Shown: in pieces, positions 8,776-27,752 of the stretch | Position numbering within the stretch: the stretch's first letter is position 1 | Layout: every line of letters starts with the position of its first letter | DNA from: a virus | Lineage: Duplodnaviria > Caudoviricetes | IMG/VR virus record: IMGVR_UViG_3300014775_000531 | Span: 1-33,419 of that record | Length of the DNA: 33,419 nt | Direction: 5' to 3' (one strand) | Position numbers and translations under genes: made by a program | Notes under the pieces: generated by a model | What the model was told of the DNA's origin: nothing | The model's input: only the letters and a program-made list of their open reading frames with translations | Databases searched by the model: none

Positions 8776-10323
8776 TTAACCGCAGTACAACACAGTCGGG
8801 ACACAGTACGAACCGTCATCGTATTCGTGCGTCTTGACCGTGCTAGTGACTTTGCCGATGGTGCTGCTGCGAATAATGTCATCCGCTTGGACACGCGCTG
8901 TGCCGTCGCCGTTGGATTCCAGCAAGTCGCCCTCTTGCACCGTGACGCCAGCATTCACGCGACAGACAAAAGCACCGACCGCTGTGACGTACATATCATT
9001 GGTGGTTTCCCAATCGTTATCCCACGCCATGAATACGCCGTAGACCTTCTTGCTGCCAGCGGTGTCGCTGATTTTGCACTTGGGCAGACGTTCGTTTGTT
9101 TCGTCAGGCCACTCACACAATTCGTTGATGGACTCCATCACCGTGCCGCGCAGAATGTCAGGCTTGCTGCCGTCTTGCAGTTGCGACCAGTGTGAGCCTG
9201 CGAAAGCGTTGTAAGAGACGGTGTTGCCGGAGACGGAGATGGAGCCTTCAGCGGTTCCTGCCTGTCTAAACTCAACAAGTGTTCCATCATTAGTTAATCG
9301 ATTAACATACAAAGGTGTGGCACTACTTCTTACAAAAACACCAAACCCATTCGCGCCATCAAACCCAACACCTGTTCCTGTTGAACCGCTAACTAATGCG
9401 CTAGGGGTTTCTGTCGTCCCAACCAGCAAATTCCCCCCGCTCGTGATTACTACTGCTGGAGTGGTTCCAATGGTAGTTGTTCCACCAGCGGCAGAGGGGG
9501 TTATCTCAAAGGCATCATTTACGTTGTATTGGTTGCCAATGAACCAATTTTTATTCGTAGATGATCCAGCAAAGAAAATTCCTGTACCACTATTGTTTGA
9601 TGCATCAAACACCTGTAATGCTTTGCCAGTTGAATTTACTTGAAGTTTTGCAGCCGGACTGCTAGTGCCGATGCCGACGTTGCCATCGCTGCCTTGGAGG
9701 AAAAATGCGTGGGTGTTGGTGTCGGATTCAATGCGAAAATCAACGTCGTTACCGGGTTCGTTAAAGATTGTTGAGGCTCCGTCAAGGTACATTCTTTGTG
9801 CAAGCACCCCTCCAATTGCAGTCTCTATGCGAAAAGTCCCAGCATCTGACGAACTCGCAAGCCTAATTCTTACTCCATTAAACGAAGCGTTTTCATTACG
9901 CCCGAAAATGTCACCTACAGCAACAAGTGAGCTACTATCATTACGTCCGGAAAGATAAAAACTAGAAGAATTTGCCCCACCAGCGACATGAAGCTGCCCC
10001 TCTGGCGCATTCGTACCCACGCCCACCCTGTCAGTGCTGGCGTCTGCGAAAATTAGATTCGCGTCGGTGTCGCCTTCCACCCGAAAGTCAACGTCGGCGC
10101 CGGAGTCGTTGACCGTGACCGCCGTGTCAAGGTCGCAAGTGCCGGTGACTTTAAGCGTCTTGCCGCTGCCTACCTGCAAGCCCACAGACGTACCCGTGCC
10201 GTCATCTTTGAAGATGCCGTCGATGGTGTCTAGGTTGGTATTAATCTTGCCGCCCCATGTGTCAGCGGATGCGCCGACCTCGGGCTTCACTAATGACAGG
10301 TTGGTAGTATTCGTGTCAGCCAT
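8776..10323 (-). CDS. Tail fibre / receptor-binding protein with putative C-terminal chaperone domain (515 aa)
   Basis: N-terminal [19 protein letters not shown] anchor, repeated DVDFR.E.D and G.VG.GT..P fibre modules, and a C-terminal domain (F.GSH...GDLLES.G.G.A..Q.DD....TIGK) resembling peptidase G2-type chaperones. Confidence 0.85.
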
Positions 10324-11327: not shown

Positions 11328-11956
11328 GGTATTACCCTCGTCGGTTTAACGGTCATCGCCACACGGCCTTGGCTCACTGCGGCGCGTGAATCTTGTACCA
11401 GCATGTCCTCAACGGCCTGCGCGTACATCTGTCCCCACAGGGCCACTCGCTCATCGTCACGCAGGTAAGGAGCCGCCTGCATCAGTGCGCCATACAAATA
11501 AACATCAGGATGACGCGCCAGAATCCAGTTGGACGTGTTGCTATCAGATAACTTGGCAAGCGTGCCGATATAGGTCAGCTCTGCGGTGTACTCGGTATCA
11601 GGCGCAGGCAGCACCTCAAACTGCGTACCGACCACGGTGAAATACAAAGGCTTGCCGGTGGTGCGGTAGACGTATTTCTTGGCGTCCAGCTCATCCTCTG
11701 AGAGAAACACCAAAGGCTGCACGGGTGCGGTGGAGGTCAGCACCAAAGACTTGGCCGACACAAAGTCAGACGGCACCGCCGAGAAGGGCGTGTCAATCGT
11801 AGCGGTCGCACGCTTGACCATACGCTCAACCGGCAAGCGCCGCTCAAGCTGCGCCTCGGTAAGCGAAATGAAGTCAGGGATAACCGAGGTCAAATCGTCT
11901 CGGTTAAGCCAATCGGCAACGCTAGACTTCAACTCGTTGTATGAGGTTAGTGCCAC
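11324..11956 (-). CDS. Head-tail adaptor (SU10-type / P22 gp4 position)
   Basis: Y.ELKS.VADWLNR.DL..IPDFI.L.EA and NWIL..HPDVYLYGAL..AAPYL motifs. Confidence 0.85.
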   Translation of the reverse strand: MALTSYNELKSSVADWLNRDDLTSVIPDFISLTEAQLERRLPVERMVKRATATIDTPFSAVPSDFVSAKSLVLTSTAPVQPLVFLSEDELDAKKYVYRTTGKPLYFTVVGTQFEVLPAPDTEYTAELTYIGTLAKLSDSNTSNWILARHPDVYLYGALMQAAPYLRDDERVALWGQMYAQAVEDMLVQDSRAAVSQGRVAMTVKPTRVIP

Positions 11957-12596
11957 CTTCTAGCTGCTCCTTCATGGCCCACGCACCCTCGTGTGAGTAT
12001 TCAAAGGTGCCGATATGTTTGACGTGGTGGCTCAAATCGTGATCCACCAACACCTCAAACCCTGCCTCTCGCGCCTTGGTGCAAAAGAAAACGTCCTCGC
12101 CTATGTAGTGGTCGCCCTTCGTTGAGTACGGAATGGCGAACCAAGGCTGCTCCATCTTCTCAAACACTTCGCGTTTCACCATCATCACGCCCATGCCGAC
12201 ATAATCGACAGGCTGCAAGCCCTCAGAGTCGGGTGCCGTGTACACGCGGCCAATCTTCCCGTCCTCATCCATCATGGCGACCGGCTTCACCGGCATGCGA
12301 CGTGTCGCATAGTTTGCCGCCACAATCGGCTTGTCTCTCGCTATCAGGTGCCCGATGGTTTCTTTGGGAAACCGCATGTCAGAGTCGAGCCATAGAAAAT
12401 AATCGGCCCCCTCTTTTAATGCTTGACGGGCAAGCTCTGTGCGTTGGGAGGCGATTAGCGTGCCGTGTGAGGTGTATAACATCACGCGGTCATCTGTCAT
12501 CGCGGTATGCGCCGACATGGCCCGTGCCATGTCATACGCAAACGAGGTCATCACAGTGTCCCGCGCTGGCACCAAGATGGCGACAGAGCGGCTCAT
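11922..12596 (-). CDS. GT-A fold glycosyltransferase (GT2-like)
   Basis: VAILVP N-terminus, WLDSDM (DxD), GMGVMMVKREVF, GEDVFFC and HIG motifs. Confidence 0.85.
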   Translation of the reverse strand: MSRSVAILVPARDTVMTSFAYDMARAMSAHTAMTDDRVMLYTSHGTLIASQRTELARQALKEGADYFLWLDSDMRFPKETIGHLIARDKPIVAANYATRRMPVKPVAMMDEDGKIGRVYTAPDSEGLQPVDYVGMGVMMVKREVFEKMEQPWFAIPYSTKGDHYIGEDVFFCTKAREAGFEVLVDHDLSHHVKHIGTFEYSHEGAWAMKEQLEGGTNLIQRVEV

Positions 12597-22299: not shown

Positions 22300-23319
22300 T
22301 TATTCTGCGGCCAATAGGGCGTCAAATTCTTCCCTGACTAGCCTGACCAGCCACGCCTCGCGGTCTTTCACGCCAAACGACAGCACAAAGTCATCGCCGT
22401 GCTGCACGAGTCCTGCGCAAAATTCCACTTGGTTGCCGCGAAAATAAAACTCACGCCCCGCATGGGTGGGGGCTAGGTTGTCGTCATAGCGCACAAGGCG
22501 GTGGGTGTAATACACACGATTCCTATCCTTGCGCCGCTGGTGTACCACCGACACCCAGCCCTCGCCGTGGCGAATCAACTGCGAGCCGCCCGACCACTTG
22601 TCCAATCCTTGAAAGTGTCCGATGTGTAAACGGCGGCGGGCGGGGGCGAGCTCGTAAGACTCGGCGGGGTGGTGGTTATAGACCACCGCCAACTGCTTGC
22701 CGTCTACGCGCACCGCCCAGTTTTTCTCTATGTCATGCCCGTGCGGGCTGTGCAAAAACTCAAAGTGGCCCACACGGTTATCGCGCAGACGCCCCATGCT
22801 CATCGTGCCGCGCACCTTCGCGCCGTGGTGCAGGGCGGTGCAGATAAACCACCAGTCGCCCTCCCACCAAAAGAGCCGCGCATCCTCTAGGCCGTGCGCG
22901 GCGGGCGGTCGGGTCTTGCGTATCTCCTCGTCATCAATGCGGGCAATCCCTGTCTGGGTCAAATTTTGATCCAGCGTGCCAAAGTAGTTGACCGTGTTGG
23001 GCTTACCCTCCTCACGGAACCAGATGCCATCCTCATCGCCCAGCTCGTAGTTGACCGTGCGCACCACAAAGGCCAACCCTCCCTCGCCATCCTTGGCGAT
23101 TGATGGGTTACACGGGTGGTAGTCGCCGCACGGCACTTGCAGGCGCACAAAGCGCGACTCAGGCAGCGCCTCTTTGAGGGTCAGGCTGCCGGCGGCAAAT
23201 CGGGCGGCGGTTTCTTTGGACTCGGCGGCTTGTCGTTCTTGGGGGGCTGCGCTTTCTGCGGCGCTTTCTTGTCGAGGCGCTTTTGAAATAGCGCGACGTC
23301 GCTTGGCTTTAGCATTCAT
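22300..23319 (-). CDS. Five-bladed beta-propeller glycosidase/phosphorylase-like protein (GH130/GH43-like)
   Basis: NPSI, EDARLF, EKNW, VEFCAGL and SFGVKD motifs. Confidence 0.7.
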   Translation of the reverse strand: MNAKAKRRRAISKAPRQESAAESAAPQERQAAESKETAARFAAGSLTLKEALPESRFVRLQVPCGDYHPCNPSIAKDGEGGLAFVVRTVNYELGDEDGIWFREEGKPNTVNYFGTLDQNLTQTGIARIDDEEIRKTRPPAAHGLEDARLFWWEGDWWFICTALHHGAKVRGTMSMGRLRDNRVGHFEFLHSPHGHDIEKNWAVRVDGKQLAVVYNHHPAESYELAPARRRLHIGHFQGLDKWSGGSQLIRHGEGWVSVVHQRRKDRNRVYYTHRLVRYDDNLAPTHAGREFYFRGNQVEFCAGLVQHGDDFVLSFGVKDREAWLVRLVREEFDALLAAE

Positions 23320-23354
23320 AGTTTCCTTTTACTCAGTGTCGTGAGTATTTTTAC

Positions 23355-23957
23355 TCACATGTGCGCGGCAGAGGCAATGCCGCGTCCGTTACTACCCTGC
23401 CCGACCAACTCGGGCAGCACCGTCAATACATTGAGCTGCTTCAGCCAATGCCACTCCAGCACAATGTCAATCGGCGTGTTCGCAGGATGCTGCTGCCTCA
23501 GCAACACCTCCACAGCGCGCCGCCTGAACCACAAGGCGTGCAAACACATTGGGTATTTCACATCGTACAAATCACCCGCCACCGGCACCTTGGCCTTGTC
23601 CTCGGTGCAGCAGCTTCCTAAAAACACCATATCACACGAGTCTGGGATGTCGGCGCGTATCTTGGCAAATCGTTCTTTGAAGTCCTCGGGCAAAAATAAG
23701 TCATCCTCAAAGATGACAAACTCATCATGCCCGTCGCGGTAGGCCATCTGCCACGCCATGAGCCAAGTCAAAAATATGCAGGTCACGCCGCGATTCAAAA
23801 AATAGTCCGTGTGCATCGGGATGCGCGGCACCACCTCAAGCGTCTTGCCAAAAAAGCCGTAGATAAAATCTAGCTCAATGCCCGCCTTGGCGGCCTCGCG
23901 CTTGGCGTGCTCAGTGCGCTCTGGCACCTCTCGCAGGGTGATGCAGTAATACTTCAC
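23355..23957 (-). CDS. Glycosyltransferase family 25 (LgtB/Lex2B-like)
   Basis: YCITL...ER N-terminus, IFEDD motif, PID motif. Confidence 0.82.
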   Translation of the reverse strand: MKYYCITLREVPERTEHAKREAAKAGIELDFIYGFFGKTLEVVPRIPMHTDYFLNRGVTCIFLTWLMAWQMAYRDGHDEFVIFEDDLFLPEDFKERFAKIRADIPDSCDMVFLGSCCTEDKAKVPVAGDLYDVKYPMCLHALWFRRRAVEVLLRQQHPANTPIDIVLEWHWLKQLNVLTVLPELVGQGSNGRGIASAAHM

Positions 23958-24619
23958 ACCACACCCTCAAGTGATGCCCCCTTGGAGATGGCAAACTTGC
24001 GGTCACGGCGCACCGAGGCGCGGCCCTCTTGCTGCACAAACTCATCGACCGCACGGGTCACGCCCGGCCATGACAGATAATCATCACCGCCCATGATGCC
24101 GCCGTTGCGCGTGAGCTTCCAATAGCCCTTTAAGTCCAGCACCACGTCGTCATACTCGTGTGAGCCGTCGATGTAGATAAACTCGGCCTCAATGCCGCGG
24201 TGCCGAATGACCTCTGCGGCTACCGTGGAGGGCAACGGTAGCGGCAGGATGACATCCTTAAAGCCCTCGCGGATGACGTTGCTCATAAAGGTTTCATGCA
24301 GGCGTGGATAGCCCGCTTGGTGGCGCAGAGACTCGTGTATCCATTTATTCACGCCATCGTGCATCTGGTACGTCTCGACGCCGCCGAGCCATGTGTCCAC
24401 GCACAAAATTTTGGTGTCTAGCCCTAGACGCTTACAAACTTTTGCCATGTGGATGGCAGAGGCACCCTTCCAAGACCCCACCTCAATAATCAGCTTGGGC
24501 TGCGTATTTTTGATGCACGCCTCAAGGATGGGGTCGTCTGAGGCCCAGCCTTGCAGGTCTAGCGGCACCAGCTTGGCGCCCTCGTAGGGGTCGCGCAAAA
24601 AGAAGTCCTGCCATTTCAT
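23954..24619 (-). CDS. Class I SAM-dependent methyltransferase (Methyltransf_24-like)
   Basis: IIEVGSWKGAS, CVDTWLG, YIDGSHEY and GDDY motifs. Confidence 0.88.
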   Translation of the reverse strand: MKWQDFFLRDPYEGAKLVPLDLQGWASDDPILEACIKNTQPKLIIEVGSWKGASAIHMAKVCKRLGLDTKILCVDTWLGGVETYQMHDGVNKWIHESLRHQAGYPRLHETFMSNVIREGFKDVILPLPLPSTVAAEVIRHRGIEAEFIYIDGSHEYDDVVLDLKGYWKLTRNGGIMGGDDYLSWPGVTRAVDEFVQQEGRASVRRDRKFAISKGASLEGVV

Positions 24620-26013
24620 ACCACACCTCGAATTTGTCGCTTGACGGTCTTATTCCACGTCGGCGTGTACGACCCGCCCACGGTCGCGGCCTCACTCGCA
24701 AAGGTCAGCACAAACGCATCAGCGCGGTCGGGTGAGGCCAGCCCTCGGCGCTTCATGTCGTCCTTGGATTCTAGCTTGAGCTTACCATTTGACATGAAAC
24801 TATAGCGCGGTGATGACAATTCATTGACCAATTGTTCATCTCTTGGCAGCTTGCAGTCGCGCGCCTCTAGCCACGTCTTGGCCTTGCCCCATAGCTCGGC
24901 GCGTAGGTTCATGTACTGCCCCTTGATGGCGGGGGACTCGCCCACGTTGATGCCGCGAACGGGTAGCTTCATCTCTCGGAGGCGATCCACCACGCCTGCG
25001 CCAAGGCCGATGCTGTCTACCAATATCTCGGCGGGGCGTTGCTTGAAGTCAGCCGATTCGTACTCGTGCAGGATGGCACCCGTGAGGGACATCAGGTCTA
25101 GGTTTTTCCATGTCTTGATGGGTTCCAGCACCACATTGGACTGCCGCTTACACAGGGCCGAGCTGTCTGAGCCAAAGCGGGCGACGTCCACGCCCCAGAG
25201 GATGGGGGCGTCGGGGTTTTGTATCACGTCACGGTCTAGGGCGGCTTGCGCCAGCTCAAGGCTGATGAGCGTGTCGTCGTCGGCCAGCGGAAACTCGCCC
25301 AGCACGCGCACCCTGTAGGCGTTGCTGCCCTCGCCGTAGCGCGATCGCATCTCGTTCACATAGTCGTCGGAGACACGCGGGCTGTCTAGGCAGGAGACGT
25401 GCAGATTTTTCCATTCGCTGGAGAGGCGATAAAATGTGTCGTAGAAATAGCCCTTGGTGCGGGTGGGGTTGCCGAGCAGCAGGGTGGTGGCGTTATGGCC
25501 CGACATGCTGCCGCCGGCTGACTCGAACACGGCCTCCGACACGCCTGGCGCTTCATCAACCACCAGGAGGACGTACTCGGCGTGGATACCCTGCAAGGCG
25601 TCGGGCTGCTCTGCGCGGCTGGTGCGGGCCGAGATAAATGACTCCTCGGGGCTGGCCTTTAATTCGATGCGGTCGGACTTGATTTCCAACAACTCCCCCA
25701 CGGCGGGGGGGAGTAATTTCGCCCAGCGGCGACATTCGCCAAACAGGGCGTCAAATAATTGACTGGCTGTGGGGGCTGTGACGACCACCTTGACGGGTAC
25801 GCGGGTCAGCATGTACCAGAGCATGGCCCACGAGGCGACGGTGGACTTGCCGGTGCCGTGGCCTGAGCGGACGCTTATCTTGCGCTCTCCCGTAGCCAGA
25901 AGCTCTAGGAGCCGCTTTTGCCACGGGTCTGGGGTGACCCCTAGCACCTCCTCCACAAAGGCCGCAGGGGCGCTGTGGTAGCGTTTTACGAAGTCTAGGT
26001 ATGGATTCTGCAT
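24616..26013 (-). CDS. terL: Terminase large subunit
   Basis: Walker A SGHGTGKS, Walker B VVDEA, coupling motif GNPT, nuclease motifs GVDVARFG.D and SPDRADA. Confidence 0.96.
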   Translation of the reverse strand: MQNPYLDFVKRYHSAPAAFVEEVLGVTPDPWQKRLLELLATGERKISVRSGHGTGKSTVASWAMLWYMLTRVPVKVVVTAPTASQLFDALFGECRRWAKLLPPAVGELLEIKSDRIELKASPEESFISARTSRAEQPDALQGIHAEYVLLVVDEAPGVSEAVFESAGGSMSGHNATTLLLGNPTRTKGYFYDTFYRLSSEWKNLHVSCLDSPRVSDDYVNEMRSRYGEGSNAYRVRVLGEFPLADDDTLISLELAQAALDRDVIQNPDAPILWGVDVARFGSDSSALCKRQSNVVLEPIKTWKNLDLMSLTGAILHEYESADFKQRPAEILVDSIGLGAGVVDRLREMKLPVRGINVGESPAIKGQYMNLRAELWGKAKTWLEARDCKLPRDEQLVNELSSPRYSFMSNGKLKLESKDDMKRRGLASPDRADAFVLTFASEAATVGGSYTPTWNKTVKRQIRGVV

Positions 26014-26084
26014 TTTTTCAGATTGGCCCGTGTGGGGTTACGCCAGCGCCCGCCCCCCGTGGGGGGTACCTGCCGGGGGGGGTA

Positions 26085-26103
26085 AATGAGAATCAGTCTC
26101 ATT
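26085..26103. promoter_or_regulatory. Fur-box-like 9-1-9 inverted repeat
   Basis: AATGAGAAT-C-AGTCTCATT, one mismatch from a perfect palindrome, about 70 bp upstream of terL. Confidence 0.55.
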
Positions 26104-26124
26104 CAATGCAGCCGGCGAACGAAG

Positions 26125-26137
26125 AATCAATGACTTA
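26125..26137 (+). promoter_or_regulatory. IHF-binding consensus site 1
   Basis: AATCAATGACTTA matches WATCAANNNNTTR exactly. Confidence 0.6.
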
Positions 26138-26163
26138 CGCGCAAAATGACCGCATCGTGAACA

Positions 26164-26191
26164 ATTTAACATAATGGGTATTATGCGAAGT
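26164..26191 (-). other. dif-like XerC/XerD recombination site
   Basis: Minus strand ACTTCGCATAA-TACCCA-TTATGTTAAAT. The XerD arm is 11/11 and the XerC arm 8/11 identical to E. coli dif (GGTGCGCATAA-TGTATA-TTATGTTAAAT), with a 6-bp spacer. Confidence 0.85.
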
Positions 26192-26211
26192 GCGGTCAAT
26201 AATCCCTTACG

Positions 26212-26224
26212 CATCAATGACTTA
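26212..26224 (+). promoter_or_regulatory. IHF-binding consensus site 2
   Basis: CATCAATGACTTA, part of the 14-bp direct repeat ATCAATGACTTACG at 26126-26139 and 26213-26226. Confidence 0.55.
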
Positions 26225-26294
26225 CGATTTGACAGTGTGCGTGCGTGCATAGAATTGCGCATATCGGTGCATAAATGAGTGTTATGTTATAACA

Positions 26295-26816
26295 TTACAT
26301 CTCTTCTGAAGTGTCGTGCGCGGGTGAATTTGCGTGCGGCGATGTGTCGCCGGTAAGTCTTTCTGGCTCCTGCACGCTCACCGTTCGCATCAGGTTACGC
26401 ACAGCCTCAAGGTGTAGCTGCGTCGTGTCAGTAATCCTGACGTCGCTTTGGATCTTATTACCCCATCGCTTCGGATCCATTCTCTCGGCAAGCCACTGTC
26501 TTGCCCCGATAGAAACCTTGGCGGCGTTCGGGTCAATCTGCTCCGTCTCAACCATATCGGCCAGTCGCTCAATACGCTCTGCATTAGCCAAAGCTCTGGC
26601 CGCTCTGACCGCCTCAAACTTCTCATGCAGCTCAGGGTCAGAGTTGATGCGATTGAGCAGGATGTTGTAGGTCACGCCGTTAGACCCATCGCCGACAAAA
26701 GCGCGCAATGAGTTGCCGTCAGCCAGATGCTCCCAGAGCTGCTCCCAGAAATCGGGAGTGCTCATAATCTTGAGGGCTTTCTCGCGCCTCTCACGCTTTC
26801 TCGGTGCGCCTGCCAT
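26295..26816 (-). CDS. terS: Terminase small subunit (Sf6 gp1-like)
   Basis: N-terminal HTH (LADGNSLRAF) and ARQWLAERMDPKRWG motif; upstream of terL. Confidence 0.8.
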   Translation of the reverse strand: MAGAPRKRERREKALKIMSTPDFWEQLWEHLADGNSLRAFVGDGSNGVTYNILLNRINSDPELHEKFEAVRAARALANAERIERLADMVETEQIDPNAAKVSIGARQWLAERMDPKRWGNKIQSDVRITDTTQLHLEAVRNLMRTVSVQEPERLTGDTSPHANSPAHDTSEEM

Positions 26817-27120: not shown

Positions 27121-27444
27121 CTATCTCTCAGGCAGCTCTTTCTTGGCCAGCTCCAGCCAATCCTCAAGAGGTTGAATCACCACAAATCCCTTGTGGTCGC
27201 CACGAGCAATCACCACCGGCTTGTCAGAAACAGAGCTTGCTTTCTGACATTGCTCAAGCCATTCATAAACCGCAATTGATTTTCTGCGCTTCACTTCGAT
27301 CAAAAACTGACCCAGGCGAACATCAGCGCCGCCGTCTCTGGCTTGGCCTAGTATTCGATTGGTCTGCCACCCAGTCTTCTCTGTGATGATTTTGCAGACC
27401 TCACGCTCTGTCTCAGCGCCTCTCTGCCGTTGTCTCAGTCCCAT
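27121..27444 (-). CDS. PD-(D/E)XK Holliday junction resolvase-like nuclease
   Basis: RG...ERE...GGADV...IEVKRR motif; start at 27444 via TAATG coupling. Confidence 0.8.
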   Translation of the reverse strand: MGLRQRQRGAETEREVCKIITEKTGWQTNRILGQARDGGADVRLGQFLIEVKRRKSIAVYEWLEQCQKASSVSDKPVVIARGDHKGFVVIQPLEDWLELAKKELPER

Positions 27445-27752
27445 TACCAGCTCGCTGTTGCCCGTCCAATATCGACAGCATCGCACAACTCTTTTGCCCA
27501 GTGAGCATGAATCGTCAGCGTCTTACGTTTCTTGCGCCTGACAGGCTTGCGCTTAAAGCTAAACTCATCAGGCTGCCTAGCCTCGTCTACAGCCTCGCAA
27601 ACCAACCTGATGACCTGGTTGCGTTCCAAGGTCTGGGCAGACGCCTGACGCACAAACTCATCCGACAGCCCTCTAGCCCGCTGGCTTGAGTGATAGCCGC
27701 AGCGCTTGCCTCCAGAGCGAGGCAGAAGGCAGACAGGGCATCTATTCGCCAT
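27444..27752 (-). CDS. Hypothetical protein with N-terminal CxxC...CxxH zinc finger
   Basis: MANRCPVC...RCGYH; start position inferred. Confidence 0.5.
   Translation of the reverse strand: MANRCPVCLLPRSGGKRCGYHSSQRARGLSDEFVRQASAQTLERNQVIRLVCEAVDEARQPDEFSFKRKPVRRKKRKTLTIHAHWAKELCDAVDIGRATASW

Follow-up and report, generated by a model that had tools for sequence, protein, structure and literature searches.

A conserved dif-like site between terS and terL of a tailed phage, possibly used by host XerCD at the genome end

The terS–terL gap and its dif-like site

The window, by which we mean the whole stretch of 33,419 bp analyzed here, is a linear viral contig of approximately 94% completeness that carries podovirus-type head, portal, tail-fibre, primase-polymerase, and RusA-like genes. 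The genes for an Sf6-like terminase small subunit (terS; 26295..26816; phrog_1482/PF20901) and the terminase large subunit (terL; 24616..26013; phrog_2; 54% identity to phiM5 terL) lie on the minus strand, as does that for a RusA-like Holliday junction resolvase (27121..27486; phrog_244). Within the 281 nt that separate terS from terL, direct reading of the minus strand from 26191 to 26164 gave a 28-mer with XerC/XerD-type layout, ACTTCGCATAA-TACCCA-TTATGTTAAAT, consisting of a XerC-type arm ACTTCGCATAA (26181..26191), a 6-bp central region TACCCA (26175..26180), and a XerD-type arm TTATGTTAAAT (26164..26174), all on the minus strand. Two 11-bp arms with an inner ATAA/TTAT dyad around a central region of 6–8 bp define a dif-like site, and the 28-mer has this form. 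The XerD arm of E. coli dif is identical to TTATGTTAAAT, and its XerC arm matches at 8 of 11 positions; the E. coli dif 28-mer also occurs among the rows of a sample of 113 viral dif-like sites described below. An earlier sequence-only reading of this DNA had given the site and its minus-strand position exactly; when up to 3 mismatches were allowed, it was the only match in the window, and none of 100 dinucleotide shuffles contained any.

A weak promoter-like match (9/12) overlaps the dif-like site on each strand. A 74-aa ORF spanning the gap (26038–26262) had no PHROG or Pfam match and was treated as spurious, and Rfam and tRNA scans of the window gave no matches. Whereas a chromosomal dif lies at the chromosome terminus with converging KOPS, this site lies on a phage contig, and KOPS, located by their consensus, showed no significant polarity around it (37 toward, 25 away; p = 0.16). 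The single-strand fold of the gap (z = −3.35) was accounted for by its palindromes, and a CTX-like folded attP was not inferred from it. Elsewhere in the window, methyltransferase (Methyltransf_24/CmcI-like) and glycosyltransferase-like genes lie within the head module (22300–24619 and 11922–12596) and possibly serve virion or surface glycosylation. There is also a 515-aa tail-fibre-like gene of low GC (approximately 49%; 8776–10323), and an unassigned 339-aa gene (22300–23319) precedes the portal gene.

Between terS and the core, the gap contains a Zur-like palindrome, TATGCA repeats, and an IHF site; between the core and terL follow a 17-bp palindrome, another IHF site, a Fur-like box, and the poly-C hairpin. 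The IHF and Fur motifs were assigned by consensus sequence. Neither the hairpin nor any of the motifs of IHF, Zur, or Fur type had been mentioned in the sequence-only reading. The first IHF-consensus-like site, a predicted accessory site (26212..26224, plus strand), is 20 nt from the XerC arm; an upstream IHF-like site at 18–22 nt was present in all 56 distinct gaps of the clade described below and in none of 30 chromosomal-type dif loci. The second (26125..26137, plus strand), a direct repeat of the first, lies 26 nt past the XerD arm, and 49 of the 56 gaps had an IHF-like site downstream of the core. An imperfect 17-bp palindrome (26147..26163) adjoins the XerD arm, a position occupied in the 56 gaps by such a palindrome (41), a DnaA box (14), or another sequence (1). 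Next come the Fur-box-like palindrome (26085..26103), which was assigned by consensus and is the sole copy in the window, and a GC-rich, poly-C hairpin upstream of terL (26047..26082, minus strand), whose poly-C tract was found in 56/56 gaps.

On the XerC side, a Zur-box-like palindrome (26281..26298) overlaps the terS stop approximately 94 nt from the XerC arm, and 16 of its 18 bases are identical to a published alphaproteobacterial Zur box (PMC2706843). This upstream slot, mostly 81–104 nt from the XerC arm, held DnaA boxes in 20 gaps, a Zur-like box in 19, a Fur-like box in 15, and none in 2, and never held two, the DnaA box being that of 10.1101/866236. Between the slot and the IHF site, two TATGCA direct repeats lie 22 nt apart (26246..26273); among the 18 gaps having two or more, 15 had them 21 nt apart, and TATGC occurred in 36/36 non-DnaA gaps versus 0/20 gaps of the DnaA type. 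In these motifs, namely an IHF-like site at fixed spacing in 56/56 gaps and a swappable Zur-, Fur-, or DnaA-type slot, the gap looks like the accessory DNA of cer and psi, as far as sequence motifs tell. PepA with ArgR or ArcA are the accessory proteins at cer/psi (PMC5357621; 10.64898/2026.02.23.706985), whereas the motifs seen here were IHF-, Zur-, Fur-, and DnaA-like, together with the TATGCA repeats; PepA has no simple motif.

Conservation in relatives and recombinase genes in sister lineages

Of 454 relatives identified by terL, the best 80 were taken, and 73 of them had at least 200 nt upstream of terL and could be evaluated. A dif-like site was found in 67 of the 73, always in the same orientation and 155–342 nt upstream of terL; every evaluable locus with terL identity of at least 75% had it in the terS–terL gap (67/67), and the 6 misses were lineages of 63–66% identity. 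Conservation of the arms, as the sequence-only reading had expected, was thus confirmed. Its expectation of variable spacers held for the first two positions, which vary as YR (TACCCA 37, CACCCA 19, TGCCCA 11; n = 67), but not for positions 3–6, where CCCA never varies in the clade. In 53 distinct sites, conservation was 99% in the inner 7 bases of the XerC arm, 94% in the XerD arm (variants TTATGTAAAGT, TTATGTCAAGT, and TTATGTTAAGT), and 100% at spacer positions 3–6, compared with means of 64% and 58% in the 20-nt linkers flanking the core; the invariance of CCCA beside such linkers indicated a constraint on the strand-exchange region, beyond the binding arms alone. Arm variation followed the pattern of bacterial dif, in which the inner part is conserved. 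The dif-bearing terL sequences formed one clade (14 representative rows; SH-aLRT 100 in a quick tree), and all clade counts given here come from related sequences and do not represent independent events.

Dif-like sites were also observed farther away. In distant terL relatives (L697–L700, L704, and L706–L708), the site was reversed, had other spacers, and lay 220–825 nt upstream of terL. Unrelated viral contigs of 34–88 kb (L094, which is G021, L127, L177, and L179) showed the arms without mismatch around a YRCCCA spacer, and none of them matched an integrase or resolvase.

The sequence-only reading had seen no integrase in this phage, and our searches agreed: neither PF00589 nor PF00239 was matched in the window, a linear contig of approximately 94% completeness, and there was no match to PF00589, PF00239, or DUF3653 in 14 near-complete genomes of the clade (0/14), two integrase matches in the search of relatives belonging to other virus types. 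A gene for the activator XafT, with DUF3653, was likewise absent from the window and the 14 relatives (0/15). The window and these relatives have no detectable integrase of their own, as IMEXs do not, and lack the phage-encoded recombinase that characterizes a loxP-like system.

In a comparison of 158 loci, some of them duplicates, a small serine resolvase gene preceded terL in 22 distinct contigs, none of which had a dif-like site, and none of nine dif-bearing loci had the resolvase. It stood directly after terS wherever terS was found. In individual sister loci (L201:966–1634; L050, L052, L679, L686, L759, and others), this serine resolvase/invertase gene directly followed terS and the poly-C hairpin whenever these could be located. 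One distant genome (G516) had both an integrase and a resolvase. A large sister clade with terL of approximately 66% identity and terS abutting terL had no dif, integrase, or resolvase in 6/6 complete genomes, the relaxed dif pattern having been run on 5 of the 6. The proposal that a dif-like site, a resolvase, or an integrase is always present in the family was ruled out by this clade, and recombination at the gap is therefore not required family-wide. The clade retains the poly-C hairpin with other host-protein-like boxes, including Fur-like and other palindromes. Approximately 600–900 nt upstream of terL in these genomes (L761–L825), the hairpin is preceded by mosaics of palindromes made up of Fur-like boxes, TAGGGTTTACCCTA repeats, SOS-box-like CTGT-N8-ACAG, and TATGCA-N5-GCATAA.

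Genome-end position and relation to other Xer sites

Among 206 distinct site records, 87 belonged to the clade; 78 of these 87 had terS upstream and terL downstream, and 9 were too short on one side. The positional link to the packaging region suggested by the sequence-only reading was accordingly upheld. Indirect evidence on genome ends came from the cultured phages phiM5 and RpT1. In phiM5, whose terL is 54% identical, the annotated terminal repeat of 357 bp takes in the 3′ end of terS, then an IHF-like site with a palindrome 22 nt beyond it, and the counterpart of the poly-C tract, which starts 43 nt inside the repeat end. At phiM5 181–238, the IHF-like site is followed by an 8-7-8 palindrome that resembles a recombinase core and occupies the position of the dif-like site in the window. 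Both arm sequences of this palindrome recur at 23150–23185, upstream of the integrase gene, 16 nt apart and with a different core. The palindrome is at most a candidate second attP: the arms recur, but not as the same core. When the phiM5 repeat geometry was transferred to the window, the repeat fell at approximately 26040–26400 and included the dif-like site; by this analogy, the gap in the window is likely to be terminally repeated. The 208-bp end repeat of the T7-like Ralstonia phage RpT1 includes a dif-like site in each copy (82–109 and 40661–40688). Presence of the window's site twice in virion DNA, as for loxP, would follow by analogy with the phiM5 and RpT1 repeats.

Dif-like sites at the genome-end position were observed in Ralstonia phages RpT1, phiITL-1 (2503), and p2137 (2500), with TAACCA or TCACCA spacers and no IHF site. 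A pattern search of the BLAST-matched Vibrio K-phages and Burkholderia phage Maja found none. The window contig had no terminal repeat at its own ends. Logan contigs of 6 runs showed no pile-up of starts or ends, although as assembled contigs they cannot show ends, and no loose end at the spacer was found among the Logan contig ends listed. One low-depth skip of 87 nt was present near the site in the X1 and X2 runs, and contig breaks were approximately 1.8–1.9 times denser in the gap, which is weak and uninformative.

Scanning of 185,579 species genomes for the arms with a YRCCCA spacer gave 111 stretches, and 67 of the 80 titles among the matches listed were Acinetobacter; 737 Acinetobacter plasmid records matched the site. 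The Acinetobacter sites were taken to be pdif/xrs-type from title and place. Of the YRCCCA sites in bacterial genomes, 103 were distinct, and 65 of these had an IHF-like site at 18–22 nt, in 57 cases at exactly 21 nt. It bears on this count that the plasmid-type sites (L205–L315, mostly Acinetobacter) share descent and are AT-rich; at the same loci, only 3 of 34 sites with other spacers had an IHF-like site at that spacing. A further sample, of 113 viral dif-like sites from which spacers with C at position 3 had been left out, contained a variety of spacers; CCA formed the end of 13, and the IHF spacing was seen at 6 sites. These low numbers indicated that the IHF geometry is the mark of a class, not a general property, and a universal CCA in phage dif-like sites was ruled out at 13/113 in that sample.

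PMC11705084 describes XerD cleavage in the absence of FtsK at two Acinetobacter sites with T/CCGCCA centres and found no accessory sequences near xrs38 and xrs66. The window spacer TACCCA has the final CCA in common with these spacers and 3–4 of 6 bases overall. It is conceivable, though we consider it rather doubtful, that YRCCCA with an IHF site 20–21 nt before the XerC arm represents an unrecognized third class of Xer site that is IHF-assisted and FtsK-independent, serves phage end joining as well as Acinetobacter pdif, and has interchangeable Zur, Fur, or DnaA accessories in phages. A search of mostly openly readable literature found no paper on IHF at pdif sites or on the IHF geometry common to phage and plasmid-type Xer sites.

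A possible role for host XerCD and comparison with known systems

Hijacking of host Xer by filamentous and tailless phages is documented as an integration route. Literature that was mostly openly readable (among it PMC12715192, PMC2731167, 10.1101/633727, and PMC3556154) described Xer use by plasmids and genomic islands and, among viruses, by filamentous and tailless ones and micro-viruses; we found no paper there on dif sites at tailed-phage terminase gaps. The reading that we tentatively prefer, at somewhat less than an even chance, is that host XerCD recombines two terminal copies of the site, closing or chaining the phage DNA. The conserved site of XerC/XerD type, which has a predicted IHF site on either side and likely lies inside a terminal repeat, would be bound in the gap by XerC, XerD, and IHF. 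IHF and a swappable regulator (Zur, Fur, or DnaA) would act on the XerC side as cer/psi-like accessory proteins, and CCA beside the XerD arm would aid XerD cutting without FtsK, as is reported for the Acinetobacter T/CCGCCA sites. XerCD would then join the two end copies with no phage recombinase, either closing injected DNA to a circle, the presumed product, or linking genomes into chains, and the RusA-like resolvase could finish half-completed exchanges. In favour of this reading are the retention of the site in 67/67 loci, the invariant CCCA, the lack of detectable recombinase genes, the serine resolvase gene in sister lineages without the site, the phiM5 and RpT1 repeats, the IHF spacing common to YRCCCA sites in bacterial genomes, XerD cleavage without FtsK at T/CCGCCA sites, and KOPS without significant polarity. 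The accessory control of cer/psi requires supercoiled DNA (10.64898/2026.02.23.706985); freshly injected DNA is linear, which counts against end joining. Also against it are the sister clade with no dif, integrase, or resolvase, the agreement of TACCCA with the FtsK-independent spacers at only 3–4 of 6 bases, and the low numbers of CCA ends and IHF spacings among other viral dif-like sites. That the phiM5 palindrome is only a putative recombinase core is a further weak point for this reading.

A serious but unlikely alternative is that the gap functions by binding only: abundant host proteins (XerCD, IHF, Zur, Fur, and DnaA) would bind tightly along an array of sites, and strand exchange would not be required. 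Such an array could shield the genome end from nucleases, act as a roadblock in repeat copying or packaging, or titrate host regulators at high copy. A slot that holds either DnaA, Zur-like, or Fur-like boxes, never two, fits this reading, as does the retention of the hairpin with Fur-like and other palindromes in the sister clade that has neither dif nor recombinase; the T5 terminal repeat also has DnaA-box arrays, for which a role other than recombination is proposed (10.1101/866236). Binding only leaves unexplained the invariant CCCA, the IHF–XerC distance common to plasmid-type sites, and the resolvase gene at this place in lineages without dif.

That resolvase gene also bears on multimer resolution, an improbable reading in which XerCD would act as at cer/psi on circular replicating or plasmid-prophage DNA and convert dimers to monomers. 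Gamma-delta-type resolvases act on supercoiled circles, and the exchange of the site for a small serine resolvase therefore fits multimer resolution at least as well as it fits end joining. The accessory-like DNA on the XerC side and the layout common with plasmid-type sites point the same way, but a resolution site could be anywhere, whereas the phage site keeps to the terminase gap and that of RpT1 lies in the end repeat, and no partition genes were found among 44 proteins scanned.

Use of the site as an integrase-free attP, through which the phage would integrate at host dif like an IMEX, had been offered by the sequence-only reading next to self-recombination, which it favoured. We consider integration very unlikely. 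None of the 87 distinct clade records had a long foreign, host-like flank, only 2 short clade contigs and no long host contig were among the 111 matches in species genomes, no hybrid attL/attR was seen, and there was no XafT-like gene; the attP option was therefore not sustained, and the preference for self-recombination was. Integration would also separate terS from terL. On the other side, the arms are near-perfect and fit many Gammaproteobacteria, MAGs often lose prophages, and rare bacteria (G026, G027, and G029) have YRCCCA as the sole or main dif-like site, among them a complete Acidithiobacillus chromosome (G027:C1:1318661) whose only such site has a TGCCCA spacer. A Chromatiales MAG (G026:C15:23221) has a TACCCA site beside genes for DUF3653, ParE, and an E2-ThiF-JAB-patatin (CBASS-like) fusion; because DUF3653 is the domain of the IMEX activator XafT (PMC6744903), this site is likely IMEX-altered. 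Chromosomal spacers were mostly TGTATA-like in genomes sampled across a family (matches in 59 of 81) and across a class (matches in 236 of 401; 150 matches listed, one of them from the unpublished G147, on which no conclusion depends by itself), where YRCCCA occurred, among the matches listed, in the centre genome only. The claim that the spacer differs from host dif thus stood for most Gammaproteobacteria sampled but not for the rare YRCCCA chromosomes. Finally, a chance look-alike in an AT-rich promoter or packaging signal, for which the promoter-like matches over the site might speak, can practically be discounted in view of the empty shuffles, the retention of arms and 6-bp spacing in 67/67 loci, and the bacterial dif-like arm variation.

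If the preferred reading, recombination of terminal copies by host XerCD, is true, tailed and apparently non-integrating phages that use Xer at the genome end would represent a new route of circularization or concatemer control. The fixed IHF spacing bears on how Xer is activated outside chromosomes at sites with neither FtsK nor PepA-type accessory DNA, and the swappable Zur/Fur/DnaA slot is a natural experiment by which a role of phage terminal DNA in recombination might be told from one as a decoy. The site type is not rare, since dif-like arms with other spacers occur in an estimated 1,100 or so further IMG/VR stretches, inovirus att sites included.

The proposed system resembles cyclization of P1 by Cre at loxP in that a site near the packaging start in terminally repeated DNA would close linear DNA, and differs in that this phage has no own recombinase and host XerCD would act. 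A role of Cre in dimer resolution is mentioned in PMC3556154. With the IMEXs (CTXphi, VGJphi, TLCphi, dif-type DJR prophages, and GGI), the phage shares a dif-like site on a mobile element without an integrase; unlike them, it is a tailed dsDNA phage with the site inside the late operon, no XafT/DUF3653, and no integrated form found. Chromosomal dif/XerCD/FtsK has the same 11-6-11 layout, and the phage arms match those of the sampled Gammaproteobacteria, whereas the phage spacer agrees with TGTATA at 2 of 6 positions, an IHF-like site is present, and KOPS polarity is lacking. Plasmid cer (ColE1) and psi (pSC101) are likewise each a dif-like core on a non-chromosomal replicon, with approximately 100–180 bp of neighbouring DNA to which an architectural protein binds along with a transcription factor that can be exchanged for another; FtsK is not needed there and would not be needed in the phage. 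In contrast to cer/psi, the predicted helpers of the phage are IHF with Zur, Fur, or DnaA rather than PepA with ArgR or ArcA, and the phage is tailed with its site likely in a terminal repeat. The Acinetobacter pdif/xrs sites have near-identical arms, common YRCCCA spacers, and an IHF-like site approximately 21 nt before the XerC arm; however, they are paired around gene modules, and those tested as FtsK-independent have T/CCGCCA spacers, whereas the phage has one site per genome with a YRCCCA spacer.
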